Positions 10,465-45,680 of a stretch of 64,000 nucleotides of DNA are shown one piece after another. Every line of letters starts with the position of its first letter. Position 1 is the stretch's first letter. The DNA lies in the IMG/VR virus record IMGVR_UViG_3300048919_000265; one strand, given 5' to 3'. The notes below the pieces were generated by a model. That model was not told where the DNA came from, made no database searches, and saw only the letters and a program-made list of their open reading frames with translations. The translations under genes and the position numbers were made by a program. The stretch is from a virus.

Positions 10465-10501
10465 CTCCTCAGTACAATTAACTTCTTCCCTTTATTAGCA
10501 T

Positions 10502-10530
10502 AAAAAGAAAGGGGTGAGTCGCCTCACCCC
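10502..10530 (-). terminator. intrinsic terminator after polA
   Basis: Minus strand GGGGTGAG-GCGA-CTCACCCC followed by TTTCTTTTT; overlaps the polA stop codon. Confidence 0.8.
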
Positions 10531-13500
10531 AGAGTTTCAATGAATTTATCAATTTCTTCCAGATCTACACCCTTGTTAATCTTTATCCAACGGTCACGGG
10601 CAATAGGAGTATTAAATAAAACAGTATAACCAGTTCCGTCCTCTTTATCTAATAAAAAGGACTTGATCTTTTCTATATGCCTTCCTAATGTTACACTTAA
10701 GACCAATTGTTCATTAACAATCTTTACATTCTTATAAGCTGGAGCTTTGCTTATCCACAAACCAGCAACACTCTTGGCAGACGAATTATCAGAATCGAAC
10801 TGAGACAAAAACTCTTCTGTTTCATCAACATCTTCTTCCTCATAAGAAATGTACAATTCTTCTTGGGAATGACCAATATCTTCCTCGTCGAAATCCCAGA
10901 ATTCATCATCAACACGGTCTTCATCTTCGCTCTCACTTGCGAAGTCAAGTTCAACAAATTCGGTGTTGTCAACTCTTACACTTCTTCTGCTGCCGTCTGC
11001 GTAAATGGCTTCCTTGCCTTCACCAAAATAATCAATAATCCAGCTCTCAAACTTAGATATCCAAATATCATCCTCGTCTTCATTATATACTGGACTATTA
11101 ATCTTGAAGAAATCAGCAACATAAGAGCGTACCGTATAATTAGTAAAGTTCTCCATAATATGCGGGATGTTAACTGGAGCCGTATCAATATTTGGCTGCA
11201 ATTCCCGAACAACAGTACCTATTCTTCGTGTAATATAATCCTGTTTATGACGCAAAACATACGACTTCACATCACTCTGATAATCATCATCTCTAAACTC
11301 GCCTTTATCCCAACGCTTAACTGTTTCATCAACAAAATACATAGGAGCCTCATTACTGTCATACTTACAGTCAGCCCAAGTATTACCAATGTTTATTCCG
11401 ATAAAATATTTGGTATGACCTTCGATACTTACAACACAGCTTTCAAACAGCAACTTATACAAATAAAAAGGATGGATACTCTTATGAACACTAAACAGCA
11501 ATTCATCATGTATAAGCATATGCCAAATAATTTTATCCGCAATTCCTTCCTTGACGCATCTACGATAAAATCTCATCAGCACCATGCGGAACAATTCAGC
11601 TGCAAAATTTTGAATAGGATAGTTCCCAGCTGGTCGTTGAATTTTTCCTTTTTTCTTGCTATCTAAGTCTCGCAAGTCAAACAAGCGATAAAATCCTAAC
11701 ACACCTGTGACTTTTCCATATGGTATATCATCCGGATCTTCTTCTTTGACTTTTATAAATTTTTGTGTAGCAGGATCCAACTTAATAGGCTTGATCGCTT
11801 CAGTTTTATACTTATCTAGCATATCAATAATAGGCTTGTTAGCTTTTTTATAGTCATAAAGCATAAACCTTGTCTTAGTAAGATTCTCGTCACTGGCGTC
11901 GCCAAACAAATTCTCAGACATCTTGTGATCACCTAATCCATAAGGTACGCCAAAACTAATCCCCTTGGTCTGCTTACGCAAATACTTATCCACCTTATGC
12001 GCAGGCCTGTTATGCACCTGTGAGGCGGTTTCGGTATGATAATCCTTTTCTGGATTATTCATCTTATCAATTACTGATTTAAATCCTGACAAGCTAGCCA
12101 TAATCCTGTATTCTACCTGACTTTGGTCAAAATCACATAAATAGTAATCATCATTATACGGCTTAACTAGAGCCTTCAAATCACCTTTCATAGTCTGACC
12201 AGGATTCATTATCCGTCTAGTTTCAATACGAGCAAGACTATACCCTTTAAATATCTTACCCTCCAAATTCTGTTTACGGAGAGGCTGATAATAACTGGTC
12301 CATTCTTTATTCAGCTCTGCATATTTTGCTAATACGTAAGCCACTGGATACTTCATACTATTAAACTTGCTAGCTTCAATTAACTTAGTTCTTTTATCAG
12401 GAGGCTTATGCTCATTAGCAGGATCTGTGGAATAAACGTCCTCCTTTAAATTCTTAGTAGGAGTTTTCCATTTATAAGTTTGTAACTTCTTCATTGCAAA
12501 CTTATCAACACTAGGTACCCGTTTCTTCTCGTCCTTTGTCCAACTTTTCTTAGGGTACTCTAAGATATCATAGATGACTCTCCTGATAGCATTACCTTTA
12601 AACTCAAACTCATACTCTGCTTTTTTATCTGGTTTTACTTGACTTTCCAACGAAGCAAATTCCTCTGGTGTAATTTTACCTACTTCTAACTCAGTTAATA
12701 ATACTTTTCTTTTATTACGTGCGTCAACCGCTACACCAACATAGTTATACAAAAATTTGCGTATAACTTTTAAATCCTGTTCAACAATATCAGCTCTTAC
12801 CTTGAGCAGCTCTTCATCTGCGGTCATACCATGGTACTCTGACATATACAGCACATTCATTATATCAACATCTTGTTTACGATACTGGGCAAGCATTTTC
12901 TCGCCCATGAGCTTAGCCAGATGCTGATAAACCAACCTAGTATAATCGGTATCGGCACAACCATACAAAGTTGCGACTCTAATATCTTGAATGTACTTGT
13001 ATTTATCTTCATTTCCCTTCCCTAAGATATCGCTTAACTCCGGGGTCTCGTGGCCAAAAATCTTTCTAGTCAAAGTCTTGAGTTTGTTGCTACCTTTAGC
13101 GACTTTAGGGTTAAGATTAAACGCCATCTGCAAGGTGTCATGTGTCCATTCACTTTTCACACCATAGTGATAGAACACCCTGCCGTCAAATAGTATATTA
13201 TGACCGATCAACATTACGTGGTCGCGGTTATAAGGATAACTCCCCACCACTTCCCAAGTAGCATCATCGTCATCCAACCGTTCAGAATTAGTCCCAAACG
13301 CATGCATCTCTTCTAGCTTCCTAACACCTTTATTAAAATTACCTCGCTTCTCTATCTCAACATCTCCACGAGAAACCTCTAAAAATGCACGAAATCTGTG
13401 AATAACATAGTCCAAAGGAACATTATTAAAGTGCTCCATAGCAATAAATATAACAACACTCTGATTATCGCGCCATGAAACTGGTATCGCTACCAATTCA

Positions 13501-14312
13501 TCAAGTTCCTCATTATCTGCACTCAAGTCGTAGAATATAAAGCCAGTGGTCTCGGTATCGACTCCAAGTTTCAACTTCTCTCCGCGATTTACACAAGCTT
13601 GATACTCTTCCATCAGTGGTTCCATAACAAATTTTTCAAACTCTACAATACTAGTAATTGGACGATAATCTTTAAGCAACGTTCCATCAGCAGCTTCATA
13701 CCAGCTCAAATCTAAGACGTTCTTAAGTTCGTCATAACTAAGACTCTTGGTCGTATGAAAAATCTGCTTACCGACACCTTTGTTTTTAATCTCAAATAAG
13801 TTCAGTTTCTTAGTCGGAACTCTCAAGTTCCAGTCCGCATTAAGGCTTAGCTCAATATCGTCGTATTTTAATTCTAGCTCTGTGTAATGGGCTTGATTAA
13901 CACGTGTAAACTTAAACTGCATCCTATCATCGCGAGCTTCAAAATAATGCAGCATGTCTCCTTGAATATCTTCTTTACGTTGGGTTACCAATTCCGGTGC
14001 AAAATAATAAGCACTGGCATCAGCCAGTGCTTGGATGACTTCAGAGAGAACAACCTTTCGTTTATGCACCATGGTCTTGCCTGAAGTCTTAGCTTTATCT
14101 AAAGCCTCGATAACATACTCTACTGGAATCGGTTTGTTTCTAACAAACCGATCATCCAAAACCATAAATTCTACGGGTTCTCCGGTAACTCTAGTGGCTA
14201 AATCTTTCTCGTGAAGTTCGGATACCAAATACCAAGATATTTTGTTCTTAGTCTCAACCAAAGATAAATAATAAATAGTTCCTTGATATTTCAGAGTGCC
14301 ACCAATCTTCAA
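10524..14312 (-). CDS. polA: family A DNA polymerase with 3'-5' exonuclease, N-terminal extension and acidic C-terminal extension
   Basis: ExoI GVDTETTG, ExoII GHNILFD, ExoIII YGCAD; motif A DFDQSQVEYR, motif B KQTKGISFGVPYG, motif C LIHDEL. No 5'-3' exonuclease motif recognised. Confidence 0.93.
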   Translation of the reverse strand: MKIGGTLKYQGTIYYLSLVETKNKISWYLVSELHEKDLATRVTGEPVEFMVLDDRFVRNKPIPVEYVIEALDKAKTSGKTMVHKRKVVLSEVIQALADASAYYFAPELVTQRKEDIQGDMLHYFEARDDRMQFKFTRVNQAHYTELELKYDDIELSLNADWNLRVPTKKLNLFEIKNKGVGKQIFHTTKSLSYDELKNVLDLSWYEAADGTLLKDYRPITSIVEFEKFVMEPLMEEYQACVNRGEKLKLGVDTETTGFIFYDLSADNEELDELVAIPVSWRDNQSVVIFIAMEHFNNVPLDYVIHRFRAFLEVSRGDVEIEKRGNFNKGVRKLEEMHAFGTNSERLDDDDATWEVVGSYPYNRDHVMLIGHNILFDGRVFYHYGVKSEWTHDTLQMAFNLNPKVAKGSNKLKTLTRKIFGHETPELSDILGKGNEDKYKYIQDIRVATLYGCADTDYTRLVYQHLAKLMGEKMLAQYRKQDVDIMNVLYMSEYHGMTADEELLKVRADIVEQDLKVIRKFLYNYVGVAVDARNKRKVLLTELEVGKITPEEFASLESQVKPDKKAEYEFEFKGNAIRRVIYDILEYPKKSWTKDEKKRVPSVDKFAMKKLQTYKWKTPTKNLKEDVYSTDPANEHKPPDKRTKLIEASKFNSMKYPVAYVLAKYAELNKEWTSYYQPLRKQNLEGKIFKGYSLARIETRRIMNPGQTMKGDLKALVKPYNDDYYLCDFDQSQVEYRIMASLSGFKSVIDKMNNPEKDYHTETASQVHNRPAHKVDKYLRKQTKGISFGVPYGLGDHKMSENLFGDASDENLTKTRFMLYDYKKANKPIIDMLDKYKTEAIKPIKLDPATQKFIKVKEEDPDDIPYGKVTGVLGFYRLFDLRDLDSKKKGKIQRPAGNYPIQNFAAELFRMVLMRFYRRCVKEGIADKIIWHMLIHDELLFSVHKSIHPFYLYKLLFESCVVSIEGHTKYFIGINIGNTWADCKYDSNEAPMYFVDETVKRWDKGEFRDDDYQSDVKSYVLRHKQDYITRRIGTVVRELQPNIDTAPVNIPHIMENFTNYTVRSYVADFFKINSPVYNEDEDDIWISKFESWIIDYFGEGKEAIYADGSRRSVRVDNTEFVELDFASESEDEDRVDDEFWDFDEEDIGHSQEELYISYEEEDVDETEEFLSQFDSDNSSAKSVAGLWISKAPAYKNVKIVNEQLVLSVTLGRHIEKIKSFLLDKEDGTGYTVLFNTPIARDRWIKINKGVDLEEIDKFIETLG

Positions 14313-14327
14313 CCTTTACACCTCGAT

Positions 14328-15110
14328 TCACTCAGCATAGCGCAAATTCAAATTCTGAGCATACTCTTTTTTAGCAAAGCTTCTTACCTTAAGCTTATAA
14401 TTGCTATAACCCTCACTAACGATAACAATTTCACCATCTTGTCGTTCAGCTGTAGTTAATACAAAACTACAGAAACTTTTACCCCTGATAACACTAGTAC
14501 CTTTGGATTGAACACTATTATAATACAATCCTACATACTCTATAATGCTACACGATTCTAGAATCACACTCTTTACAAATTCAAGTAGAAACTCATTCTC
14601 AACTCCATCAGTATGTTCTGGAGTGTCTTTCACAAGACTTGCAATAAAAGCATCTAATTTAGGATCAACACCACACAAACTATCAACAGTGAATCCCAAC
14701 AACCCATCAAAGTTAAACTTCAACAGATTACGTGACAGCACGTCATATCCCTCAATACTACGAACAGCTTGAAGATCCGCACCACACTTACGATGAAGTA
14801 TATAATCCAAACTATCTTCCAAGCTTATGATAGTAGTATACTCTTTAGCATAACGGCAGACTCCCAGTTTCTCAATCTCCAGATGTGAATCTGATATCTT
14901 ACCCATAAACTCAGAATACTCCCGCTCTGAATCCTTAGCAGTTAAAACAGACCTAATGTGATAGTCTTCATCAACAGTACAAGCCACCTGACTTTCATAA
15001 CCACTCAGATCATCAATAACCTCGCAGCCTTTCTTCCTAAGCGATCCAAGCGTTTTGCTTCCTTCCCTAATCAACTTAGATTCACTATATAAATTTACTA
15101 ACAAATTCAT
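14328..15110 (-). CDS. hypothetical protein (260 aa)
   Basis: SD GAGGTG; overlaps the upstream ORF. Confidence 0.75.
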   Translation of the reverse strand: MNLLVNLYSESKLIREGSKTLGSLRKKGCEVIDDLSGYESQVACTVDEDYHIRSVLTAKDSEREYSEFMGKISDSHLEIEKLGVCRYAKEYTTIISLEDSLDYILHRKCGADLQAVRSIEGYDVLSRNLLKFNFDGLLGFTVDSLCGVDPKLDAFIASLVKDTPEHTDGVENEFLLEFVKSVILESCSIIEYVGLYYNSVQSKGTSVIRGKSFCSFVLTTAERQDGEIVIVSEGYSNYKLKVRSFAKKEYAQNLNLRYAE

Positions 15111-15339
15111 TCACCTCACCAAGAATAGGCCGTTCTTCTGTAACAGCAACCTTAACAGCTGTACTAGTTGGAACCTCTACCCATTTCAATTTATCTAGGT
15201 CAAACAAAAATCCATCCCGTACACCACCTACGCTACTCAACATGTCTTCATTAAGTGTGGTTCTGAAAGTGATTGCACTCTTATCTGGATAGATAAAAGT
15301 AATCCACCCATCTCTATGTAGTAAATCATGTGAATCCAC
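15085..15339 (-). CDS. small hypothetical protein, possibly an SH3/Sm-like beta barrel
   Basis: 84 aa; ITFIYPDKS..FRTTL...FLFDLDKLKW is loosely like phage WYL_2/DUF2693 proteins. Confidence 0.55.
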   Translation of the reverse strand: MDSHDLLHRDGWITFIYPDKSAITFRTTLNEDMLSSVGGVRDGFLFDLDKLKWVEVPTSTAVKVAVTEERPILGEVNEFVSKFI

Positions 15340-15360
15340 AAAATCATTCCTTCCCTGCCA

Positions 15361-15630
15361 CTATTTAAACCAGCTGAAAAATTTCTTAGCTGGTTTCAAA
15401 CCTTGTACAAAAAATTCACCATCTTCAATAGATCCCAACACAGTCTGATAACATTTCAGTTCACGTGGGGAAAGAGTACTCTTACGCGACATATTATAAA
15501 GTTTTCGTTTATGCACAATAAAAATAATAGAAGAACTTCCAAATTTAGCTACAACACCTTTGATCATAAACAAGCCTTCCTCCAATCTAGGGCTGGAAAT
15601 AAAATTATCCTTCCCAGCCCTAAAATTCAT
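15361..15630 (-). CDS. hypothetical protein (89 aa)
   Basis: Fills the gap between co-directional genes; overlaps the upstream stop. Confidence 0.65.
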   Translation of the reverse strand: MNFRAGKDNFISSPRLEEGLFMIKGVVAKFGSSSIIFIVHKRKLYNMSRKSTLSPRELKCYQTVLGSIEDGEFFVQGLKPAKKFFSWFK

Positions 15631-18001
15631 CTCTCTGTCCTACGGTCATCTTGTAAGACTTACCATTACGAAACCAAATCCAATACCCATAAACATGTAA
15701 ATACCGCCAAGCCCCTATATGCTCCTTCTTATACAGTTTCCCTTTCCTAAATAAGAACCCGTATTTATCGGTATCACATAATTTTCTAAACCGGTTAAAG
15801 TTTTCAAACTCTGAAGAAGCTGGCTTCCCGCTTCTATAAATGTTAAAGCTTGCTTCTGCAAAAGAACTCTCCGGTAAATCATAAGGATTTTGCTCCACCA
15901 ACCTAAACTTATCATTAAGAGGCGCATACATCGTACTATACAATTCTTCTAGGTACCTGAATAACATTGAAAACTCATCATGCATTTTATTATACAACTT
16001 CACAAGATGTGAATTAATATCCTGTAATTCCCACCCAAAAGGAACATAATAGGACAAGCTAAAGTTATCTTGAAACCACTTGAACTCGTCATTATGTTTT
16101 GGTCTGATTGGCATAGTAAACAGTTCAATATTCTCACTCATAATAAGAAACGCTTTTAACTCTGTAGCAACTGCCTTATTCTTCGCCACGAGATCAATTG
16201 CCTTGGCAACAAACTTAGTGAAATTAGTTATAAAATCAATCGAGCGAAGAAACGAAAGAAACCTATCGCTATCTGTTTTATAAGGATAAATGAAATCGGA
16301 CAACCCATTATAAACCGCTTGTCCCCAATTCTCAACCACAAACTCCTCAAAATTGAAAAGCTCATCAACCTTCCAAAAAATATTATTAACAGTGCTCAAC
16401 ACCTTAGTATCTTGCACATGTTTTAATAACTTTGGTACTATCTTCTCTACCACAACACGGAAACTCTCAGCAAATTCAAACTTATCATGCTTATAATTTC
16501 CAGTCAAACGACCAAGTTTCTGATAAGACCCTGCCACTCGATTAGGATCAAATATCACATCAGACACCTTGCTTTTGATAGCCTGTCGCTTATTATTATA
16601 TTGATCAATCGCATCTTTAATATTAACCAACGGAATTGCTCTCACACCGGAAATCTTTTGACTGGCAATGATATCATCGTAAAATTGGTCGTTCGTCATA
16701 AGCTCGTGTTGATAATTTTCATCCTCTGCACTACGCAGTTCCTTAATCGTAGTGTACAGCTCCTGATACTCTCGGAATGTTTTGTGCCTACGAGTCAATA
16801 GCACGTCTTTAAAAACATCACTAGGAACCCTAAACACATTTATATTCATCTTCTCTAAATACTTAAGTAAGTCTCTAAGAGAAGACATCCCCACAATCAA
16901 AAGTTTGATTCTCGTGTCATTATTCAACCCGTCCTTTGGGTTATAATCTAAATAACTAAAAACAGGTCTTTGATCTCCCCCACGGGAATCTATATAAATC
17001 TGTTTATTTTGTTCCATCATGTTATCTATTACAACCGGTAAATCTTGTGGACCAATTTCATCCCGCAATAAAGGGTCCAACAGAGACAAGATCTTGTCTC
17101 TGTCTTTTGCCTTTGTATAAGCATACTTTTCTGTATTCATACTTATACCATTACTCACTTGGAAATTAATATCCACAAGAGAAGGCTTCCTGTAAACTCC
17201 AGCGTACTCAAAAGCGTTATTATAAATCGCTAAGATTTCATCAAACTTACGCTGAGCCAACTTAAATTTATACCGTGAAAATAAATCATAAAAAACTCGC
17301 TGATTGTGTCTATACATAAAATTAGACACCTGATAAATATCAAACGCTAGCTTATCAAATCCAACGAGATCTTCGAAATATGTAACTTCCACAGTGGTAT
17401 AATCAGCACGACTAAAATCAGAATTATCAAGATTTGTATTAACACCAGTAGTGTTAATAATCTTAGTTAGAAATGAAGACTTTGACTTCATGTAAAATGA
17501 AAAAGCCTTCACAATGAAAGGAACAATACCATTTGTAGAAGCGTCATAACTCCAATCATCACTATACTTCTCCAAGAAATTTGTGGAGAAATCGTGCATA
17601 ATAACTGACCAGTCAGCATCTGAAAAATCAGCACGTTTATTAGAAATATACTTACGAATATCACGCTCTAGTTTAGCCCGCAATTGCTTCTCCACATACT
17701 TGACCTTGCTATACTCATAAGGAAGATTAAAATCATTATAAGTAGTCATAGTCATAGTGAGTTGCTTATTAAACCAGCTAATAAAATCATCCTCAGAACG
17801 TAAATACTTCACATACTCCCGTATTTGATCAAATGTACTTTCTGTAAAAACATTGCGAGATTTTAGAGTGCTAACAATTTCTTCAGCACTTACTGTACGT
17901 AGTGTATTATAGAGATCTGAATCATTGCCTACAATAATCTCAGCAATGTGCTTTAGAACTGGTAAGCTATAACTAGTATTACGACTCTTACCAAATAGCA
18001 C
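15620..18001 (-). CDS. large hypothetical protein (793 aa) with a possible sigma region-2-like segment
   Basis: ORF is clear (SD GGAGGT, GTG start). The sigma-like segment at about residues 112-172 is a weak by-eye match only. Confidence 0.7.
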   Translation of the reverse strand: MLFGKSRNTSYSLPVLKHIAEIIVGNDSDLYNTLRTVSAEEIVSTLKSRNVFTESTFDQIREYVKYLRSEDDFISWFNKQLTMTMTTYNDFNLPYEYSKVKYVEKQLRAKLERDIRKYISNKRADFSDADWSVIMHDFSTNFLEKYSDDWSYDASTNGIVPFIVKAFSFYMKSKSSFLTKIINTTGVNTNLDNSDFSRADYTTVEVTYFEDLVGFDKLAFDIYQVSNFMYRHNQRVFYDLFSRYKFKLAQRKFDEILAIYNNAFEYAGVYRKPSLVDINFQVSNGISMNTEKYAYTKAKDRDKILSLLDPLLRDEIGPQDLPVVIDNMMEQNKQIYIDSRGGDQRPVFSYLDYNPKDGLNNDTRIKLLIVGMSSLRDLLKYLEKMNINVFRVPSDVFKDVLLTRRHKTFREYQELYTTIKELRSAEDENYQHELMTNDQFYDDIIASQKISGVRAIPLVNIKDAIDQYNNKRQAIKSKVSDVIFDPNRVAGSYQKLGRLTGNYKHDKFEFAESFRVVVEKIVPKLLKHVQDTKVLSTVNNIFWKVDELFNFEEFVVENWGQAVYNGLSDFIYPYKTDSDRFLSFLRSIDFITNFTKFVAKAIDLVAKNKAVATELKAFLIMSENIELFTMPIRPKHNDEFKWFQDNFSLSYYVPFGWELQDINSHLVKLYNKMHDEFSMLFRYLEELYSTMYAPLNDKFRLVEQNPYDLPESSFAEASFNIYRSGKPASSEFENFNRFRKLCDTDKYGFLFRKGKLYKKEHIGAWRYLHVYGYWIWFRNGKSYKMTVGQRDEF

Positions 18002-18015
18002 CTAAATACCTCCAA

Positions 18016-18558
18016 TCATAATCGCGTAAAAAGGTAAATTCCAAAACCAACATAAGCTGCCACCACCAAAGCCTTAACATGCCACGGATTCTTCGCAATT
18101 AGTGGTTTAGCTAACAACTTGAGTCCATTACTAATAACAAAATATGATAGCTTTAATGCCAAACCCGTTCCAACAACTACAGCCCTTTGTGCAGAGAACA
18201 TGACCGTTTCAATAACTTGTGCTATACCAGCCTTAACGGTAACCACACCTATCTTATCACTTTTTCCACGGTTACACTCTTTACAACAAGCTACTAGATT
18301 AAAAGGACGATTCATAGCCTTAGCTAAGACACTATTGTTTTTAACAATTTGTCCGTGACGATTCCTCTTCTTCTTAGCAAAAAAGGAAGGAGGGAAGCCA
18401 TGATCGACTTCCACCTTATCCTTGCCAATGAGAGGTTTCCAACACTGAGAACAAAACCAAACCGCCCCAAACAACCCGGGCTTGCGTTTAAAATACTCAG
18501 AACGATAGTCATACTCATCACGCCAATGATCAACGTGTTGCGGATTGCCCACCTGCAC
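18016..18558 (-). CDS. HNH endonuclease-domain protein with hydrophobic C-terminus
   Basis: CSQC...EVDH...NLVACCKECNRGKSDK (HNH with Zn ligands); C-terminal hydrophobic helices. Confidence 0.8.
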   Translation of the reverse strand: MQVGNPQHVDHWRDEYDYRSEYFKRKPGLFGAVWFCSQCWKPLIGKDKVEVDHGFPPSFFAKKKRNRHGQIVKNNSVLAKAMNRPFNLVACCKECNRGKSDKIGVVTVKAGIAQVIETVMFSAQRAVVVGTGLALKLSYFVISNGLKLLAKPLIAKNPWHVKALVVAAYVGFGIYLFTRL

Positions 18559-18563
18559 TCACC

Positions 18564-21500
18564 TCAAAATAACTTCATTTTATCCATCTTTTTATCTTCA
18601 CTATTAACCGTTTCTTCTTCCTTAGTTTCTTCCAAGGTAATATAATCTACAGACTCTTTATTTACGGGTTTTATATCATCAAAACTTAATAGGGCATCAA
18701 GGTCCATAAGACTATCATCCAGCACAATGTTCTGCGTTTCTTGTACTTGAACTAAGCTGGATGCTATTGTACCTTCTAACTCCCTCAGGTTATTATGCTC
18801 CTCATAAACTTCGTTTTTCGTCACCTTCATTTTCTTAGGCAACGACAGTATTTTAGTACGAGATCCAGTCACATCCTGCCCGTAGAATAATGATCCTATG
18901 GCTGACTTACCCGGGCTACGGGTTTGTTGAGTAACAAACAACCCTAAACTATCAGCTAGCTTCTCCCTTGCCATTTCAGTTTCCATACCACTAAAATGAA
19001 TAATAACAGGAGAGCTTCCGTTAATGTCAAACATATACTTCACACTACCGTTACTATTTTGCAAAATATCATTCAGTTCATACGTACGACCCTCTTTAAA
19101 ATTCTCGTCATCAGAATCGAGAACAATACCAAGAGAAGTCTGCAACTTAACAAAAATTTCAAAATGTCTAGCGTTAACTTTTATTTTACTAAGTTCAAAC
19201 GTTCTAAAGTAAAGCTCTAACAAAGCCATTTGTTTAAACCGCAGCACTTGTAAACTTGGACTATTTTCTAATTCTGAAGGAATAATGAATCCTGTTGTGA
19301 GTGGCGAAGTTTCTTCCACATACTCTCCACTTTCCACAATTAATTCATTTGCAGTCTGCAGCATTAGTTCTTCGCCATCGTCGGCTACTAGTCTAACATT
19401 ACCGTCACCGCTAGTGTAATGAACATAACCACTCTTAGGCGGCAAAACAGCACCAGTCAAACCTCTAGGTTTACCAGAATCGAGCAGATTCTTTAGTACA
19501 TCCACACCCTTATTAATGCTCGCCCCTGCTACACCACCTTGGTGAAACAAACTAAGCACCAATTGAGCCGCAGGCTCTCCAATACTCTGCGCTGATTCTA
19601 TACCTACGAGATCGTCTATCTCAGGTAATTTATTAACGTCATAACGCATACCATAACAATGTGCACATACTCCCCCAATACTTCTACAAGAAAGAATTGT
19701 ACGCAATGATATACTATCCAAATTCTCCTGCTCTATATACTTTATAGTAGCAGGGCTTATATAATGCCCTTGCAGCAAACTAGGTAGAGCCTCCGTCTTT
19801 CGACGTAACAAAAGACTCTTCATCAAGCTGTCAAGTTCATAATATAGCTTGAATTCTCCATCTGTAGTCTTAATACGCTTGACCTTATTCTTGATTAAGA
19901 GGTTAACGCATTTCTCATTAATTTCTAGATCCAAACCCAGAAAATTCAATAGCAACTTATTATTGGCATTATCACTAGTATCTAAGTGCTTGCCGAACAA
20001 TGCTTTACTTGCTACAAGTTCCCCACTAGGCCCTATTATCTTATCCGTGAATTTTCCATACCGTAGTTTGAAATCCTCAAATTCAACACCACAGTCATGC
20101 TCTACAATACGCAAACCTGAACTCATATAAACTGCAGTTCTAGTTAACTCACCCGAAATCGCAGTTTCATTCTGGGTACTAGCTACACCAGTTCTGGTCG
20201 AGAATGAGAGCAATAAAGTGTCAAAGCTACTAGTGCCTTTTGCGTAATTACTTAACACTGGCACTTCGAGTGTTTCATTCTTGGACTTTTGGAGAATACC
20301 AATAACACCACAGGCTTGCATTATTTGTCCTTCCGTACCCCGGGCGCCGGAATCAAACATAATAAAGATATTATTGTTACGATCAAAACTAGCTACGAAA
20401 GTCTTGGCTATATTGTCTTTACATCCATTGTAGATTTCGATCAATAAATTTTTGCGGACCTCGTTACTTAGCAACCCTTGATAATAATCACGGTTAACTA
20501 TTTCTGCATACTGTTTTGCTTTCGCAATTTTAGCATGCATAGTAGGATCTTCAACAAAATCCTCCAGGTACAAGGAAATACCACTAATGTCGGAATACTT
20601 AAATCCAAATTCCGATATTGCTTGGAAAACTTGCAAATTTTCGTCTGCGTTCAGATCGTTATAACTCCAAGAGGTAACATCACTCAACGCCACGTAAACT
20701 GGCTCTTTCCTGCTACCGCCATTTCCGGAAACTAACCCATCGAATCTGAGGTCACAATAATTATTTGCATTAATGCCTTCAATTCCTAACACATTAGTAT
20801 AAGGCTCATCTGTAAACCCTAACCCGCTCACTAATAGTCCATTAAACAGCACTCTACCAGCAGTTGACAAATACCTGCGGCCATTGGTACTATAACAAAC
20901 GAGGTCATGCAATGCCAAGAAATCCAAATCAATATCCGTTTCCAGCTGCCCTAAATCTGTGTAAAATCTTAGATTAGACAGAGAATACCTCGAGTCTTTG
21001 GTTATGCTATCCACATTGTTGTGTAACATAGTTGCAAAATAAACACCCAACTTCATGTCTTGCGAATGATCCAAAACAACACTATTGTCCTTAGGATTAA
21101 TAACCCCATACTTAGGACTTAGCTTCTCCATAGCTTCTTCACAAGCTGCATTGTTAACTAATCCGATGATCCACATTTGGTCACCATCATAGTCAGCGTT
21201 ATAACCCTTAGCCACCAATGGATGCAGCTCAATACACTTCTTATTAGTAATAATAGGTGTATAAGCTCTAATATTGAATTTGTGGAGAGAGGGCTGTCTA
21301 CCTGCTAAAACGACTCTAGGTTTAATAACCCATTCATCTGAATTAGGATTCTTATACCCTTCGATATAGGCACTAATAACGCCATAAATCTTATCATAAA
21401 TCTCAATAGCAGAAAGTCCCTTGTTAATCATAACTTTGCCAACTTTGGAACGGAAAGCAGCCATATTACTTCCCATAACCTCTAAAACATGTTCCCATTC

Positions 21501-24500
21501 TCTCTTGTCCATATCATAGTCACTTAAGTTTTGAGATAGTAAACTCACTAACTGTGGTTTCCATATCTCTAAACACAACAAGAATGGCAACCCTATTTGG
21601 GTAGGAAGTCTTTTTGGATTACGAGAAGGAATGATAACTGTACGACCGGAGAAGTTAACCCGCTTCTTCAACATATTCTCGCGAATACGGCCGTGCTTCT
21701 TATCTTGATTCTCACGCTTAGCGAAATACTTGAGAATAGGAGTGTACCCTTTATTCTCCTTAATTTCACTGCCATAAGTCAACCCACATAACTCAACAAT
21801 TCGTAAATAGATACTATAAATACCTACAGGATCTTCTTTACCCAACGCTTTATATTTAGACACTTCGTCTATAATGCGTCTATAATAATAATCAAAGTCC
21901 TGAAAAGTATTCTTAAACATAGCCTGCGGTCTAAAACTTAACGGCATAACAGGAAGACTACTAATAACAAAATCTTGCAAAGTCAAGCCAGCTGCCTCGA
22001 AATCGAGAACACCTCGTAAATATCTTTTATGCTCAAGACGTTTATCATCCTTTTGAGCATTCTCAATTTTCTTTTGGTAGAACTCTTTAATTGGTTCGAA
22101 ACTCGTTCTCTTCAACATATGAACCAAAGCTGGCATTCCTGTCAACTTGCCTTCCGTGCTGCCCCTACGGAATACAAACACCTTATCTTCCTTCACAAAC
22201 TCTTCTTCTATATAATACTTGCACGCAATGAGTTCCTTAAGCATACCCATTTGAGCAACCATTACTTTCACTTTGCCACTTTCGTTCTCTTCCTTACCAA
22301 TCAGTAAAAACCGATGTATCTTACCCTTGGTAATCCACATAGGATGGACAAGCTCTGCATGTAAAGGCATCCAACTCCAGCCTTTACGATTCTTAAACCT
22401 CTCCCTATCATTAGTTGTTATCCCAAAAATATTAGTAGAGCGCAAACTATCTTTATCATTAATATCTACTGATCTACTGTTCATTCCACGAATCATGCTA
22501 TCAGTCAAAGGTTTGAAACTAAACCCTTCCATTTCATCAATAGTAGCTTCTGTACAAAGACTACGCATAATAACCTGGAACAAATCATCATTATGATTTT
22601 CGCCTTCGACGTCAACTTCACTTGGGTTTTCAGCAAAACTTTCTTCGAGAGCCTCGATACTTTCTAAATCATCACTTTGTACACTTTGTAAATCTTGTAA
22701 TATACGTTTGCCTCCAACCGCCATTATACACCATGTCTCATACTCACCGAAGGCTTGACCACCTGCATGACCCGCACCTTTATTAGGCTGATTAAACACA
22801 GGATCAGTCTTCTTACTCAATCCAATACCTCTAATCTTATGATCAACCATATGCTCTAATTTAAGCATATACATAACCACAACATTAATAGGTCTCTTCA
22901 ACCACTGACCTGTTCTACCATCTCTCATTCGTAACGGTTTAGTATTAGTCTTCTCCGCCATATTTCTTACAAACTCTAAGGTGTTTCCTTTATAAGGGGA
23001 AACAATAGCAATTTTTCCTAGCTTTTTCATAGCAAATCCTAAAACCCCTTCTAGGATTTGACTAATGTTAGAGCGAGAAGGAACACCCAAGGGACTGATA
23101 ATAATATCAGGAACTACACCGCTAACTGGATCAAATGGCATATCAGATTTTGGAACAATTTTTGCAACTACGCCTTTATTACCATAGCGACCTGCTAATT
23201 TATCTCCTTCTTCGATAGGTTTCAACACACCCAACATTACAACAGCTTCATTACCCTCAATGTAAGAATATATTACTTCACCCTGAACAGTTCCTTCCAG
23301 TCTCTTAACTGCATCAAAGACTCCTAAAACTGTTGTCTCTTTCTTCGTATACTCATTCTTTATTCTCCGAATGCCTAGTACTACATCCCCAGGTTTAAGG
23401 ATACTACCTTCTTTTGGCAAACCTTCATCCGTCATGTGTGGTAGAATTGATTTACCCTTGAAACCAAACTCTTCAAAAGATTTAGTCCCTTTGTCTTCAT
23501 CAATCACAGGTTCTGCCAGTTTATACGAAAATCTGTGCAGTTCTACAGTAGTCAGACCATCAGTACCTACTAACTCGCTACTTAATAAAATAGCATCATC
23601 AATAGTAGAACTTTCATAAGTTTTGTAGCCCACAACCAAATTTCTAGCAATGGCAATGCCACTATTAAACACTTTCGGGTCCACATTCATATTGCCGAAA
23701 TCAGTATGATGGAAAATGTCGTAGCTCCGTGTGTCTATATCGCTACTATGCGTAACAATATCATCACCGGAGTATTTTACACCATTACTTGTATTAACCT
23801 GGTACGAAAACATAACACCACTCGACGCCTTTTGAATAAAGGGCACATTCACAACAGGTGTATGATTAGGTACACCCTCAATGCGGAAATATAAATCTCT
23901 GCTTCCGTTATTAATATCAATATTAGTAAGCTCTATTTCTTTAGTAAGAAAGTCTTCTCTACTTATACCAGAGAGCAATTCAGTATTACTATCGTAATAC
24001 TCCACCAATATCTCAGACGCTCTGATAAACCCTTCCTGTAATAAACTATCACCACCAGAGCTGACAAGAGGTCTCTCGTTCCTTATTGGCACAGCGGTTT
24101 GTTTGTGATGATTACTACCCATCAGCAAACGTTTTGGATTACTATGTTCCTGAAACGGAATTTGCATTCTTGCAGGAGACATTGTTTGATAAGGAGAATA
24201 CTCCATATACAAAACATCTTTAACCGGAACCTCTAACATTGTATCATTATACAACACCAAAACCTTATCTTTCAATACCTCGGTACCATCTTCTAATTTC
24301 TCAAAAAAAGTCTCTCTCCACTCAGCAATATACTGATCCTCTTTTTCTGCAGCAGTAAGATAGACTGGTTCCTTGCTAACGACTCTTCCGTTTTTAACTT
24401 TAATATACGGGGCTTGCAAAAATCCATAGCTATCTGTTTTTGCTAACCAAGTCTTGGCGTGCACAGTACCAATCTTGCTACTCTCAGGACTTTCAATTGG

Positions 24501-26012
24501 ATCAAGCAAACCAAATTGACCTTCTCTAACACTAGTCATCTCAACCGAACTACGTTTAACTTGCTTAGTAACTCGATGTTCTTTAGCCTTTTTCTGAATA
24601 GTGTTATTCAGCTCAGATTGCTGACTCTCCACTGATTCTACGCTTGTAATCTTGTCCATCAAGCTATTAGTATCGAATCCGTGCAGCTCTATAACTCGCT
24701 TCAACAAATCTGAATCTTCTGAACTTTCCTCTACATACTTGGCTATATAATAATTAACAACTTTGCAACTAGATCTTATTGCATTAAGTGCTGTGATTTC
24801 TATAGTCACCAAATTCTGATTAGTCAATTCATAAACGTTATCATAATTATCCAACCCGCTTAACGTGTCAATGAAAACTTGAATCATACCCAAGATATCA
24901 AAAACCTCTAAGTTACCGCTATAAAGTTTGCGATAACATGTATAAGTTTTTCCTTCATTGGAAACTAAGATATTATCCACTAAACTTTGATCAAGCTGTT
25001 TTAGAACTTCTACGGTTAGAACAGTGCCCTTCGAAACAATACTATTACCAACACGTACATCTTCCTCCAACACACACCCTAATGCTCTAAAATTGAAGAT
25101 AGATGTCTTACGAACAATATAGACTTTCTTATTACTATCATAAACTTTTAAAAAGTCAACTGAACAATAATCCAACTCTTCTAACGTCCGAGGATCTAAA
25201 ACCATGCCTTCCCTGTAAATCTTTTCACCTACGGTAAGAGTCTCGCCTAAAAACAAATTTCTGCAACGCTCTTTAAAACTCAACGTGTTTTTCATACGAA
25301 CACCCGCGATATCCCCTAAAACCATTAGGTGAGGGCTGAAAAGACTCTGCTTAGCTAACTCAAACTTATCTTGAATACTCATGTTTTTCAATTCTACATC
25401 TCGTCGATTATTCTTAAACCCTTCGAAAAAGTTGGTGATCACTTGATCAACACAATCTGATTTTAAAGGTTCCCTTTGAGAAAAAGAATGTATAACGTAA
25501 ATACTATCAGTACCCAGTTTGTTAGCTAATTCTGCATAACTCAAACCCGTAAAGGCTTTCAGGAAAACAGCAAGCGGTATTTCACAATCCCCAACCTTAT
25601 TACTTGTTGTAATATACAACTTATAGTCCTTCTCATAAATAAGAAGATTTTTACCTAACTCTGACTTCATCTGTAAATGCGGAATCTTCACCTTACTGGC
25701 ACTCTTCAAAACATACCAACCATAAGACAGAGTATAGATATCTATAACTTGTCTATTTTTTCCATTAATAATAAAACCAGTTTCACCATAGTGAGGTAAT
25801 TTTAAAAGATCCATCGGAAAAATAATTTGTTCACCCGTAGTCTTAACCTTCACATCAACATTAGCCTTAACCATTACCAACCGACTACCGTTTTCTTCAT
25901 AAACACTCTTGTTGTTTATAGGATACATCGAATACTTAACACTATGTGTATCCGTATCGACAGACATATCTTGCAACAAATTCTGTACTTTACTATACTC
26001 AACCTTTCCCAA
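18564..26012 (-). CDS. rpoBC: DNA-directed RNA polymerase, fused beta-beta' single polypeptide (2482 aa)
   Basis: beta motifs: GFIINGKNR, DPIESPES, RLLMGSN..Q..VP, GDKLAGRYGNKGVV, KLEHMVDHK, GGQAFGEYE, SDD. beta' motifs: KRVNFSGRTVI, RQPSLH, NADYDGDQM, SGARG, SGELTR, CxxxxGVCAHCYG, AQSIGEPAAQL. One uninterrupted frame; TTG start with SD GGAGG. Confidence 0.97.
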   Translation of the reverse strand: MGKVEYSKVQNLLQDMSVDTDTHSVKYSMYPINNKSVYEENGSRLVMVKANVDVKVKTTGEQIIFPMDLLKLPHYGETGFIINGKNRQVIDIYTLSYGWYVLKSASKVKIPHLQMKSELGKNLLIYEKDYKLYITTSNKVGDCEIPLAVFLKAFTGLSYAELANKLGTDSIYVIHSFSQREPLKSDCVDQVITNFFEGFKNNRRDVELKNMSIQDKFELAKQSLFSPHLMVLGDIAGVRMKNTLSFKERCRNLFLGETLTVGEKIYREGMVLDPRTLEELDYCSVDFLKVYDSNKKVYIVRKTSIFNFRALGCVLEEDVRVGNSIVSKGTVLTVEVLKQLDQSLVDNILVSNEGKTYTCYRKLYSGNLEVFDILGMIQVFIDTLSGLDNYDNVYELTNQNLVTIEITALNAIRSSCKVVNYYIAKYVEESSEDSDLLKRVIELHGFDTNSLMDKITSVESVESQQSELNNTIQKKAKEHRVTKQVKRSSVEMTSVREGQFGLLDPIESPESSKIGTVHAKTWLAKTDSYGFLQAPYIKVKNGRVVSKEPVYLTAAEKEDQYIAEWRETFFEKLEDGTEVLKDKVLVLYNDTMLEVPVKDVLYMEYSPYQTMSPARMQIPFQEHSNPKRLLMGSNHHKQTAVPIRNERPLVSSGGDSLLQEGFIRASEILVEYYDSNTELLSGISREDFLTKEIELTNIDINNGSRDLYFRIEGVPNHTPVVNVPFIQKASSGVMFSYQVNTSNGVKYSGDDIVTHSSDIDTRSYDIFHHTDFGNMNVDPKVFNSGIAIARNLVVGYKTYESSTIDDAILLSSELVGTDGLTTVELHRFSYKLAEPVIDEDKGTKSFEEFGFKGKSILPHMTDEGLPKEGSILKPGDVVLGIRRIKNEYTKKETTVLGVFDAVKRLEGTVQGEVIYSYIEGNEAVVMLGVLKPIEEGDKLAGRYGNKGVVAKIVPKSDMPFDPVSGVVPDIIISPLGVPSRSNISQILEGVLGFAMKKLGKIAIVSPYKGNTLEFVRNMAEKTNTKPLRMRDGRTGQWLKRPINVVVMYMLKLEHMVDHKIRGIGLSKKTDPVFNQPNKGAGHAGGQAFGEYETWCIMAVGGKRILQDLQSVQSDDLESIEALEESFAENPSEVDVEGENHNDDLFQVIMRSLCTEATIDEMEGFSFKPLTDSMIRGMNSRSVDINDKDSLRSTNIFGITTNDRERFKNRKGWSWMPLHAELVHPMWITKGKIHRFLLIGKEENESGKVKVMVAQMGMLKELIACKYYIEEEFVKEDKVFVFRRGSTEGKLTGMPALVHMLKRTSFEPIKEFYQKKIENAQKDDKRLEHKRYLRGVLDFEAAGLTLQDFVISSLPVMPLSFRPQAMFKNTFQDFDYYYRRIIDEVSKYKALGKEDPVGIYSIYLRIVELCGLTYGSEIKENKGYTPILKYFAKRENQDKKHGRIRENMLKKRVNFSGRTVIIPSRNPKRLPTQIGLPFLLCLEIWKPQLVSLLSQNLSDYDMDKREWEHVLEVMGSNMAAFRSKVGKVMINKGLSAIEIYDKIYGVISAYIEGYKNPNSDEWVIKPRVVLAGRQPSLHKFNIRAYTPIITNKKCIELHPLVAKGYNADYDGDQMWIIGLVNNAACEEAMEKLSPKYGVINPKDNSVVLDHSQDMKLGVYFATMLHNNVDSITKDSRYSLSNLRFYTDLGQLETDIDLDFLALHDLVCYSTNGRRYLSTAGRVLFNGLLVSGLGFTDEPYTNVLGIEGINANNYCDLRFDGLVSGNGGSRKEPVYVALSDVTSWSYNDLNADENLQVFQAISEFGFKYSDISGISLYLEDFVEDPTMHAKIAKAKQYAEIVNRDYYQGLLSNEVRKNLLIEIYNGCKDNIAKTFVASFDRNNNIFIMFDSGARGTEGQIMQACGVIGILQKSKNETLEVPVLSNYAKGTSSFDTLLLSFSTRTGVASTQNETAISGELTRTAVYMSSGLRIVEHDCGVEFEDFKLRYGKFTDKIIGPSGELVASKALFGKHLDTSDNANNKLLLNFLGLDLEINEKCVNLLIKNKVKRIKTTDGEFKLYYELDSLMKSLLLRRKTEALPSLLQGHYISPATIKYIEQENLDSISLRTILSCRSIGGVCAHCYGMRYDVNKLPEIDDLVGIESAQSIGEPAAQLVLSLFHQGGVAGASINKGVDVLKNLLDSGKPRGLTGAVLPPKSGYVHYTSGDGNVRLVADDGEELMLQTANELIVESGEYVEETSPLTTGFIIPSELENSPSLQVLRFKQMALLELYFRTFELSKIKVNARHFEIFVKLQTSLGIVLDSDDENFKEGRTYELNDILQNSNGSVKYMFDINGSSPVIIHFSGMETEMAREKLADSLGLFVTQQTRSPGKSAIGSLFYGQDVTGSRTKILSLPKKMKVTKNEVYEEHNNLRELEGTIASSLVQVQETQNIVLDDSLMDLDALLSFDDIKPVNKESVDYITLEETKEEETVNSEDKKMDKMKLF

Positions 26013-27962: not shown

Positions 27963-29204
27963 TTATTCCAAGGAGAGTTTCTTCAATCTAGCTCCTCGGA
28001 TTATACTATTTATTGCACCACTATTACGTTCAAATACAGCAACTTGACCAGGTCGGAGGTCCTCTGTTATAATTATGTCTGGATTAAATCCGTTCAACAT
28101 TCTTGCTTCTGTCCGATCCTTCGCTAGTAGCGGCTCTAGTTGCAATCTAACTGACGCTTCTACTCTCTGCTGCTCTACCAATATTCCCTTGATTGTAGCA
28201 TAGTAGTAATTAAACGACCAGTACTCCATTTTCAAAGCCACATTCCTATTAGAATATTGATTAGATATAACTTCACTGTACGTCATGTCGTCAACATCAA
28301 CAACTATCCCATCTGACGGTATTCCATTCGACATATTGAACATCATATCAAATTTTTCCTTCAACCACTCTACAAATTTATCATATATAATAGGAACTTC
28401 GCCTCTTGCTATCTTTATATATGGGACCGTATTAAATCCGCTAGTCTGCAGAACGTCTAAAGTCTCGCTTAACTTTGTGCTCAAGCCTTCCGCTGTAAAT
28501 GCCAAGCTCTTTAGATGCTTGTAATCCTCGGCATCATGCTTGACACGTAACATAGAAATAGCACTACTCTTCTCTGTTTTATAAGCCGCAGGATCATACT
28601 TTTGTCTCAGATATGGTAAAGTATCACTTTCCACATAACTTTCGGAGTAAATTTTCACTTCAGAAGGAAAACCCTTAAAATATCTAGGGACAATATTCAA
28701 AATCGTATCTGTAAAATCATAACCTTTACCCCGTCTTCCGCGAGAAAGTGTTAATTTTAACTCAGATAAACCACCTTCTGTTTCCAGCACAAGACTCTTA
28801 TTATTAATACCGTCAACCTTCAGCGACATAATAAGATCCTGATCACTAAGTCGCATGAAATAAGAGTATGCATCTTCATATTCTGTAATAGCCTCAATAC
28901 TTAAAGACTTCTCCTCATCCAAATAAGGTATATACTCTGAGCGACTCTCATTAGGTGCGGGAGCGTACTTTCCCAAATCAAATTCCTGCAACACTTCAAC
29001 AGGAACTGGATCATCGTCATAGGTTCTATTCAGAAATTCAGAAATACCTGGTAACGCTTCCCGATTATCTTTACAATAATCTTCTAACTTCCCATAAAAA
29101 GTGTCATTAACTATTGGTTGACCTATTCTGTACATATACCTGGTCAAGGCAAAAGCATCCACAACCCGTTTGTCTTTTAAAAGGTCCTGCAAAATATCTA
29201 ACAT
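27963..29204 (-). CDS. ligA: NAD-dependent DNA ligase N-terminal half (domain Ia, adenylation domain, OB fold)
   Basis: Domain Ia YMYRIGQPIVND..Y; motif I SLKVDG; SRGRRGKGYDFT; motif IV SDGIVVDVD; motif V VALK; OB-fold LEP...DLRPGQVAVFERNSGAI, then stop. Start revised to ATG 29204 (track 29240). Confidence 0.88.
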   Translation of the reverse strand: MLDILQDLLKDKRVVDAFALTRYMYRIGQPIVNDTFYGKLEDYCKDNREALPGISEFLNRTYDDDPVPVEVLQEFDLGKYAPAPNESRSEYIPYLDEEKSLSIEAITEYEDAYSYFMRLSDQDLIMSLKVDGINNKSLVLETEGGLSELKLTLSRGRRGKGYDFTDTILNIVPRYFKGFPSEVKIYSESYVESDTLPYLRQKYDPAAYKTEKSSAISMLRVKHDAEDYKHLKSLAFTAEGLSTKLSETLDVLQTSGFNTVPYIKIARGEVPIIYDKFVEWLKEKFDMMFNMSNGIPSDGIVVDVDDMTYSEVISNQYSNRNVALKMEYWSFNYYYATIKGILVEQQRVEASVRLQLEPLLAKDRTEARMLNGFNPDIIITEDLRPGQVAVFERNSGAINSIIRGARLKKLSLE

Positions 29205-29217
29205 AACCTTGCCACCT

Positions 29218-29763
29218 TTACTGATATTTATAACTTCCAACTAAAATAAACTTATCCAAATCAGCATAATCTACCCTAAATCCGTTCCGGTAGTATCCAT
29301 TAATATAAGTTAGTGCTTCCCCTACAATTATCTTGTTGCCTTCGACCGTGCCACAAGACCTAATAACTTGTTTTCCTTCCGGTGTTACTAAGAAATCTAT
29401 ATCATAATTCCCAAGAGGTACGCTTTCTACCCAAAATATCGTGTCTTCATATCCTGTAACAGATTTATAAATCTCCTTGGCTGCTAATGCCCCTAACTTC
29501 CTACTAAAGAACCACATCCAAGATATTAATTCCATTTCAGTATGCTTTCTCAAATTGAGAAACTCAAATATAAATTTGAAGTCTTCTACTTTTAAGTTAG
29601 GATTATACATATTATCTAGAGCAACTTTTCTCATAATTTGAAATTGTTTACTAGTAAGCAATTTTAATCTTAGTGCTTTAGATATTTGTGCTTCCACCTC
29701 ACGGTCAATTGCTTTCTTCTTTACTACAAAATCAGTTAGGTATTCAACACCCAAGCATAACAC
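29218..29763 (-). CDS. hypothetical protein (181 aa)
   Basis: ORF in operon; SD GAGGTG. Confidence 0.75.
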   Translation of the reverse strand: MLCLGVEYLTDFVVKKKAIDREVEAQISKALRLKLLTSKQFQIMRKVALDNMYNPNLKVEDFKFIFEFLNLRKHTEMELISWMWFFSRKLGALAAKEIYKSVTGYEDTIFWVESVPLGNYDIDFLVTPEGKQVIRSCGTVEGNKIIVGEALTYINGYYRNGFRVDYADLDKFILVGSYKYQ

Positions 29764-32947: not shown

Positions 32948-33694
32948 CTAATATTGTTGTACATAAGTTACTACCTTTTCCCCGTTAATAATATCCTCAT
33001 TCTTTAAGAACTCACCTGATGGGAATATATAATCCGGATCTGAAACATCTTTAATATTATACGTCTTAAAAGAGGGTAAAGACGACGGCTGCGTATATTC
33101 CCTACCCGAAGTATCAACCTTAGTAATAACTACTATCTTATTATCTTGTGTAAAACTATTCGTATTCAAGTCAGCAACAACATCATAACCTTTAACAGCA
33201 TCTGTCAATCTTTTCGCCACAATAGCTGTCTGGGCACTTCTTACGCGTACTTCATCACCCATAACACTAACTAGTGGCATTTGAAGTAACTTACCTAAAA
33301 GAGTAGACGTCCGATCTTCAACATAGACAGTGATTCTATCACCCACATCCAAAGGACGTCCCACAATCTTACCCGATTTTGCCCCACTTTTTTGTCTGTC
33401 TTCACTTGATTCGTAAAACACATCAAAAGTATTAGGTTGTAACTGCTTCTCTAATTTAAGCTGAATAAAATATCTCTGACCAACAGGACCAATACTATAA
33501 CGATTGATAGTGTCACTAAGTCCATCATACATATTAGAACTTAATACGCCCGTCGTACTAACTGACTCTGCTGTATCATAAACCAGATTATCAACTTCTG
33601 CCTGCACACGTTGATAGCTAAAAAACGTAATCATTATCATATAAATATAAGCAATAACAAATACTTTTACGACTGCAGCGAAAGTATTTCCCAT
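32948..33694 (-). CDS. TadE/pseudopilin-like protein
   Basis: N-terminal hydrophobic helix followed by QRVQAEVDNLVYDTAE; position at the end of a tad-like operon. Confidence 0.55.
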   Translation of the reverse strand: MGNTFAAVVKVFVIAYIYMIMITFFSYQRVQAEVDNLVYDTAESVSTTGVLSSNMYDGLSDTINRYSIGPVGQRYFIQLKLEKQLQPNTFDVFYESSEDRQKSGAKSGKIVGRPLDVGDRITVYVEDRTSTLLGKLLQMPLVSVMGDEVRVRSAQTAIVAKRLTDAVKGYDVVADLNTNSFTQDNKIVVITKVDTSGREYTQPSSLPSFKTYNIKDVSDPDYIFPSGEFLKNEDIINGEKVVTYVQQY

Positions 33695-33724
33695 TAATTC
33701 ACAACCTCAGTTCTACGTATATGT

Positions 33725-33748
33725 AGGAGGGGAATTAATTCCCCTCCT
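33725..33748. repeat. perfect 24-bp palindrome aggaggggaattaattcccctcct
   Basis: Read directly; 7 bp after the stop of the 33755 gene; no U-tract on either side. Confidence 0.9.
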
Positions 33749-33754
33749 GTCTAA

Positions 33755-34330: not shown

Positions 34331-34338
34331 TAATTCAC

Positions 34339-34752: not shown

Positions 34753-34769
34753 TTTACACCTCTCATTAC

Positions 34770-35849: not shown

Positions 35850-35867
35850 TTACTCACCTTCCCCGCA

Positions 35868-38527: not shown

Positions 38528-38529
38528 AA

Positions 38530-39309: not shown

Positions 39310-39327
39310 ACATTACACCACCCATTA

Positions 39328-40200: not shown

Positions 40201-40218
40201 CCCTACAACTCCCTTAGC

Positions 40219-45619: not shown

Positions 45620-45652
45620 TGTTCCAAACACTCCCATAATTTTAGTCATCCT

Positions 45653-45680
45653 ATTATCCACCCTTCAAATTTTTGATCAA
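45653..45680 (-). promoter_or_regulatory. candidate sigmaA-type promoter for the SLH gene
   Basis: TTGATC-N16-GATAAT immediately downstream of a terminator. Confidence 0.35.

Follow-up and report, generated by a model that had tools for sequence, protein, structure and literature searches.

The DNA analyzed here, a stretch of 64,000 nucleotides that we refer to as the window, carries at positions 18564 to 26012 of the minus strand a single open reading frame (ORF) of 2,482 amino acids that encodes a fused beta-beta′ RNA polymerase (RNAP). The frame starts with TTG, and an AGGAGG ribosome-binding site lies 7 nucleotides upstream. A plus-strand reading of the same interval was ruled out, as that frame is full of stops. 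The features of the enzyme and of its neighborhood are as follows.

18564 to 26012, minus strand: fused beta-beta′ RNA polymerase, 2,482 amino acids
22547 to 26012, minus strand: beta half, residues 1 to approximately 1156; catalytic K938, K946, R980, D806, and H1054 kept, rifampicin pocket and flap tip altered
22530 to 22550, minus strand: linker-free beta/beta′ junction, placed by alignment
22386 to 22424, minus strand: site of the missing beta′ zinc-binding domain; the four Cys are absent in all aligned members
21180 to 21200, minus strand: catalytic Asp triad motif, residues 1605 to 1611, with Asp at 1607, 1609, and 1611 (nucleotides 21194 to 21182); the Asn and three Asp are invariant in 57/57 members
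19542 to 20170, minus strand: bridge helix, second Zn site, and trigger loop (His2157)
18564 to 18578, minus strand: C-terminal M-x-x-F tag behind an acidic tail, common to many element proteins
18016 to 18558, minus strand: HNH-like protein with a C-terminal membrane segment, directly downstream of the RNAP; homologues in 7/8 element loci
15620 to 18001, minus strand: 793-amino-acid helical protein, conserved beside the RNAP
14328 to 15339, minus strand: two conserved genes for proteins of 84 and 260 amino acids, function unknown
10524 to 14312, minus strand: family A DNA polymerase, part of the conserved core block
27963 to 29240, minus strand: adenylation domain of an NAD-dependent DNA ligase, standing alone and conserved upstream
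32948 to 41142, minus strand: Tad/Flp-like pilus locus, with a secretion ATPase at 36806 to 38527
44399 to 45661, minus strand: surface protein with an SLH domain; among plasmids, its best matches are in Paenibacillus and Thermobacillus

Within the fused chain, Pfam domains occurred in the order Rpb2_45, Rpb2_6, and Rpb2_7, followed by Rpb1_2, Rpb1_3, Rpb1_4, and Rpb1_5. The NCBIfam rpoB and rpoC models matched the first and second halves, respectively, with E values of 1e-91 to 1e-113. Taken together, Pfam and NCBIfam placed the beta domains at residues 536 to 1122 and the beta′ domains at residues 1291 to 2179. When aligned with cellular enzymes, the last conserved beta helix joined the first beta′ strand without a linker, at about residues 1156 to 1162. 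An initial annotation, made from the sequence before any database search, had described one frame of 2,482 amino acids with beta regions followed by beta′ regions and a junction near 22500 to 22620. The domain order on the minus strand agrees with that description, and the aligned junction at 22530 to 22550 falls inside the proposed interval. The Asp motif, bridge helix, trigger loop, and second Zn site (C1974, C2109, C2116, and C2119) that had been listed were all located by alignment as well.

Residue conservation was scored in an alignment of 57 family members and is given here in Salmonella numbering. Beta residues Q688, D814, K1065, K1073, and R1106 were invariant in 57/57 members, as were beta′ residues R425, N458, D460, D462, and D464. 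The hallmarks of two-barrel enzymes, namely, the beta′ Asp triad and two beta Lys residues, were thus found in all 57, and the second Zn site was nearly invariant. The flap, bridge helix, and trigger loop were present, with the conserved regions of beta and beta′ in order. Judged by these residues, the active center of the family RNAP is intact. The Tyr in the catalytic motif of the window's enzyme is a local variant of a position that is Phe in 53 of the 57 members, and the trigger-loop His (residue 2157 in the window's enzyme) is replaced by Asn in 27 members.

Several other parts of the enzyme have been deleted or rewritten. The beta′ N-terminal zinc-binding domain is cleanly deleted together with the zipper, its four Cys being gone, and the lid is shortened, with part of it lost. 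In the sigma70-binding clamp helices, the equivalents of R275, R278, E295, and R297 are not conserved, and the same is true of the equivalents of L901, L902, and I905 in the flap-tip helix. In the established structure of the bacterial holoenzyme, sigmaA is bound by the faces formed by the zinc-binding domain, zipper, clamp helices, and flap tip. Since these faces have been deleted or rewritten, we infer that host sigmaA docks poorly on the family RNAP. The same changes bear on the initial description of the enzyme as near-full-length but divergent, in which the near-full-length part hides these losses. The switch-3 residue R1269 is lost or altered in the family. Several residues of the rifampicin pocket are changed, with H526 being Lys in 40 of the 57 members, and on that basis the family RNAP is predicted to be insensitive to the drug. 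The beta segments that contact alpha have been kept, including the equivalent of M1085 in 57/57 members. By its sequence, the family RNAP belongs with the two-barrel, cellular-type enzymes but departs from the housekeeping form in the zinc-binding domain and the sigma faces.

A protein search returned 86 other fused homologues, mostly of 2,400 to 2,900 amino acids and on contigs of up to 310 kb, that were 27 to 71% identical to the window's enzyme in the beta′ half; split forms shorter than 1,365 amino acids could not be returned by this search, and we therefore make no claim that every relative is fused. Eight loci from independent assemblies contained the same single RNAP ORF in a shared gene order, consisting of the ligase domain, small genes, the RNAP, the HNH-membrane protein, a protein of 790 to 1,200 amino acids, two small genes, and PolA. 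The concern raised in the initial annotation, that the fusion might be an assembly artifact, is contradicted by the recurrence of the same ORF in these eight independently assembled loci, and also by the 86 fused homologues. Measured against its two nearest relatives (identities of 67% and 62%), the window's enzyme had a pS of 0.76 to 0.80, which is saturated, versus a pN of 0.23 to 0.27. Giant elements of approximately 180 to 310 kb from Gram-positive bacteria form a syntenic family with a fused RNAP. No family member was present in PLSDB plasmids or GenBank phages, where the matches were ordinary rpoB/rpoC at 25 to 30%, and none was present in IMG/VR among the matches listed. One locus (L198, positions 10001 to 19600) has a family RNAP with a shortened C terminus followed by an integrase fragment and then by chromosomal pyruvate kinase and rpsU; this is perhaps a deleted, integrated remnant.

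The most informative relative is a fused homologue on a 250-kb contig (C37) of a Wujia genome bin (G001), the first 65 kb of which contains housekeeping genes. A 27-bp direct repeat at positions 65790 and 246150 of that contig is the 3′ end of a tRNA-Met. The tRNA-Met is intact at the right end, a terminator-like hairpin lies beyond the left repeat copy, and a tyrosine integrase is encoded at position 65881 (E value of 2.5e-20). The region from 65790 to 246176 is a complete integrated element of 180 kb with an ICE-like integrase and att repeats at tRNA-Met. Integration at this site is seen in one metagenome-assembled contig, with the L198 locus as a second, suggestive case. Ordinary rpoB, rpoC, rpoA, and omega genes were found on other contigs of the same bin, in keeping with the earlier reading of the fused chain as the enzyme of a mobile element and not the sole RNAP of a host. 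A sample of approximately 800 genomes from the Wujia family and phylum contained no further element, and the element is therefore rare there.

The Wujia element encodes a DnaG primase, helicases, a clamp loader, PolA, and TubZ, along with a pilus ATPase, FtsK, a sortase, a pilin, and a signal peptidase. It also encodes a sigma70-type protein (E value of 1.8e-9) and GreA (E value of 5.8e-5); the sigma70-type gene was seen in this one element only and may be cargo. Hsp70, NADAR, thymidylate synthase, dNMP kinase, and a tRNA-Gln of its own are present in addition, and the FtsK gene adjoins two small helical genes. A terminase, for which one family was searched directly, was not found on the complete element, and the same search found one elsewhere in the bin. 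Neither capsid, portal, nor terminase was among the PHROG and Pfam matches listed for the element, in lists of up to 25 families, and about half of its genes are orphans. Among transfer genes, PF13814, which is also the Inocle marker (InoC, replication-relaxation), and PF19044 (TraG-type ATPase) were not found on the element, and a search with its VirB4 candidate gave no match.

The initial annotation observed that the window lacks an alpha gene, and indeed none is encoded within the 64,000 nucleotides. From this, and from the kept alpha-contacting segments, it proposed that the RNAP may borrow host alpha, and it suggested seeking rpoA, rpoZ, and sigma homologs in the rest of the replicon. Run on the Wujia relative, that search found an alpha and the sigma70-type gene but no omega, as PF01192 matched the host copy only, although a divergent omega could escape such a search. 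The alpha is a 200-amino-acid gene product whose profile matches RpoA in the PDB with an E value of 1.8e-6 and whose structural model (pLDDT of 94) matches RpoA in Foldseek with an E value of 1e-12 and a TM score of 0.8. The alpha profile comprises 171 clusters, nearly all of about 200 amino acids among the 150 listed, and it covers the N-terminal domain of ordinary RpoA with E values of up to 6e-23. The element alpha has no C-terminal domain. Alpha and RNAP genes lie on the same contig in Wujia C37 and in JGI Ga0618279_000013, whose RNAP is 62% identical to that of the window, and two further pairs were assigned to shared contigs by equal size (209064 and 223754). On the two contigs for which both genes could be located, alpha and RNAP are 59 to 79 kb apart. 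A search for the alpha of the window's own element gave no match. Because in four relatives the RNAP contig also encodes an alpha N-terminal domain, the idea of a borrowed host alpha is probably wrong, and the simplest reading is that the fused chain probably uses the element's own alpha.

Phylogeny was examined with one tree of 165 sequences and two quick mixture-model trees, built without named Helicobacter or Wolbachia sequences. The family RNAPs formed one clade with a support of 100 and a long stem, placed outside the Bacillota (support of 99) and apart from the phage enzymes. The RNAP of the Wujia element did not group with the RNAP of its own host. A phylogeny had been suggested as a check in the initial annotation, and in these trees the family branches apart from the enzymes of hosts. 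The element clade and a clade of fused phage enzymes were separate, with a support of 0.5 for a sister link that may reflect long-branch attraction. The best PDB matches of the fused RNAP are Bacillota enzymes, from C. difficile (7l7b and 8i23), S. aureus (8x6f), and B. subtilis (6wvj). A sister link between the elements and Bacillota was not rejected by the AU test (P = 0.40), and we therefore make no claim of an ancient origin. An early capture out of the Bacillota lineage with rapid change thereafter is as likely as a deeper origin.

The family shares with the bacterial core RNAP (alpha2-beta-beta′-omega) a common domain order, the active center, the bridge helix, the trigger loop, the second Zn site, and the alpha N-terminal domain fold. 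It differs in being fused and borne on a mobile element, with approximately 26 to 30% identity, no beta′ zinc-binding domain or zipper, altered sigma faces and rifampicin pocket, an alpha without a C-terminal domain, and no omega found. The RpoBC proteins of Helicobacter/Wolinella and Wolbachia likewise have beta and then beta′ in one chain. Those fusions are sole housekeeping enzymes, whereas the family enzyme is a second, divergent copy. Assignment to the Helicobacter/Wolbachia RpoBC equivalog was rejected, as the fused RNAP scored about 400 bits against NCBIfam NF007172 and NF011417, far below the cutoffs of 5372 and 4632, and is a second copy rather than the sole chromosomal one.

Single-chain beta-beta′ enzymes of 2,000 to 2,900 amino acids were also observed in approximately 30 IMG/VR phage contigs (L099 to L178), where they form their own clade and lack the zinc-binding domain. 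Like the family, phage mReC and these fused phage enzymes have divergent beta/beta′ on a noncellular replicon, and the fused forms share the loss of the zinc-binding domain. In contrast to the fused phage enzymes, the family forms a separate clade and has an alpha, and no terminase was found; no alpha was detected within 10 kb of the fused phage RNAP genes. In the mReC paper, crAss is the only case for which fusion is mentioned (PMC7481178). The list of known cases in the initial annotation was incomplete, missing crAss (PMC7481178) and the approximately 30 IMG/VR phage fusions. Because fusion already occurs in Helicobacter, crAss, and those phage contigs, it is not by itself the novelty. The phiKZ and AR9 RNAPs consist of 4 to 5 chains and lack alpha and omega (PMC7598289); they are two-barrel enzymes and host-independent, as the family RNAP probably is, and the family instead has a single chain and an alpha. 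The flap (SBHM) insert is absent from YonO and NCgl1702-like enzymes, and cellular HMMs miss those of crAss (PMC7824862, PMC7481178). All of these hold both barrels in one chain and occur on prophages or mobile elements, as does the family, which differs in keeping the cellular architecture, including the flap, and in being detected by rpoB and rpoC models.

Among mobile elements, the family resembles Inocles, the giant elements of Streptococcus, and tRNA-integrating ICEs in its very large size, mostly orphan genes, own replication and repair genes, sortase, signal peptidase, and ICE-like integrase with att sites. It differs in that PF13814 was not found and a standard conjugation module was not identified. 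The Inocle paper does not mention an RNA polymerase (PMC12340149). The open-access literature searched contained no description of this element family, or of any plasmid-like or integrative element equipped with a nearly complete transcription kit of the cell type. As an enzyme, the fused chain is a variant of known two-barrel RNAPs; the elements themselves possibly constitute a new class.

Considering these observations together, we infer that the fused protein is an active enzyme and, quite likely, serves as the catalytic chain of a private RNA polymerase that this family of giant mobile elements from Bacillota encodes. Since the elements have their own cell-type RNAP and short alpha, they probably read their own genes without the host's enzyme. 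In the mechanism that we propose, the fused chain would fold on a dimer of the element's own alpha. No alpha C-terminal domain would be needed, such that host UP elements and activators would be ignored, and the core would work without a recognizable omega. Transcription would start at element promoters with an element-encoded specificity factor, which could be the small sigma or the adjacent 793-amino-acid protein. Long one-directional operons would be transcribed when the host holoenzyme is unavailable or redirected, for example, after entry into a new host. The fusion would fix a 1:1 ratio and stop mixing with host beta and beta′.

Other explanations were considered. The elements might be giant temperate phages with unrecognizable virion genes, and the RNAP a new phage type. 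This would fit the tyrosine integrase at a tRNA, the genes all on one strand, the element's own PolA, primase, thymidylate synthase, dNMP kinase, and TubZ, its many orphans, and the occurrence of fused RNAPs in phage contigs. However, the terminase search that found a gene elsewhere in the bin found none on the complete element, the listed PHROG/Pfam matches included no capsid, portal, or terminase, and the listed IMG/VR matches included no family member. The sortase, pilin, signal peptidase, pilus ATPases, and SLH proteins are, moreover, cell-surface cargo, and we consider the phage explanation unlikely. It is more doubtful still that the chain works with alpha, and perhaps also sigma, from the host, with the element alpha serving a different purpose, for example, to poison the assembly of host RNAP. 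The wide spacing of the alpha and RNAP genes and the conserved alpha-contacting beta segments could be taken in its favor, but those contacts fit either alpha, the host sigma-binding residues are lost, and an intact alpha N-terminal domain fold co-occurs with the RNAP wherever both could be placed in relatives.

We also asked how well the chain could be explained as an inactive or repurposed scaffold, either a decoy or a primase-like helper of element replication, and not a transcriptase. Its gene does lie in a replication block beside PolA and the ligase, and the zinc-binding domain and the fork-loop and switch-3 arginines are lost. Such a role is highly improbable given that every residue that binds metal or substrate is conserved, as are the bridge helix and the second Zn site, and given the presence of GreA, alpha, sigma, and a separate DnaG primase in the complete element. 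Lastly, the long branch outside the sampled bacteria might suggest an assembly chimera, or else the only RNAP on the chromosome of some reduced, so far unknown lineage of cells. This has been largely refuted, and we give it almost no credence, as there is no ribosomal-protein context, the same ORF recurs in many independent assemblies, and the gene is found in Paraclostridium bifermentans assemblies and inside the att sites of a Wujia chromosome with normal rpoB, rpoC, and rpoA in the bin.

To our knowledge, plasmids and integrative elements have been assumed to depend on the host RNA polymerase, and the bacterial parasites that we know to bring a cell-type RNAP are phages, the best-studied of which lack alpha. 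Under the interpretation of a private, element-encoded polymerase, a plasmid-like or integrative element family keeps its own alpha, sigma, and GreA, the latter two seen in one complete member. Its enzyme would be a natural, simplified, and probably orthogonal bacterial RNAP made of one chain and a short alpha, without the zinc-binding domain. It lets the dispensability of conserved RNAP parts be tested, and it is a candidate tool for host-independent expression. The element family has been overlooked, and its second rpoB/rpoC copy could mislead marker-gene surveys.

The 793-amino-acid protein encoded beside the RNAP had no Pfam, PHROG, or PDB sequence match, and its model (pLDDT of 54) had no match in Foldseek. 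A wide structural search with residues 91 to 188 gave three sigma domains with Z scores of 5.1 to 5.2, ranked below unrelated helical bundles, and on this modeling the segment may be sigma2-like. A k-mer scan for an element promoter motif returned only ribosome-binding and terminator-like words. All long genes of the window (positions 1 to 64000) are on the minus strand, and the GC skew is steady. A conserved 354-amino-acid gene at 8536 to 9600, 18 kb from the ligase adenylation domain and without a Pfam match, may, judged by eye, be the missing C-terminal half of the ligase. Cargo in the window includes SLH/Ig surface proteins and toxin-antitoxin-like genes (Fic, PIN, and DUF6036), and the SLH cargo gives a weak hint of a Paenibacillus-like host for the window's element, whose contig measures 212 kb.

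A C-terminal M-x-x-F was found in 16 of 339 ORFs of the window and the Wujia element, compared to 1 of 1,051 cellular and 0 of 1,507 viral ORFs (Fisher P = 1.6e-9). In the window, the ORFs with ends at 18564, 26582, and 49274 terminate in this way. Among the family RNAPs, 24 of 87 end in M-x-x-F, and 38 of 87 do so when either M or L is allowed; several small membrane proteins of the elements also carry this ending. The tag resembles clamp-binding motifs, and in T4 late transcription the polymerase is directed via the sliding clamp. A broader and quite tentative possibility is that the elements are a new class of self-transcribing giants, with a whole second expression and replication system in Gram-positive cells, that move by a nonstandard pilus or secretion route. 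The M-x-x-F tag might then direct the polymerase to an element hub, which could be the sliding clamp or a transfer channel through which the single-chain enzyme would travel together with the DNA. Family members are present in two assemblies of Paraclostridium bifermentans, on contigs of 292 kb and 40 kb, and these are possible bench strains.
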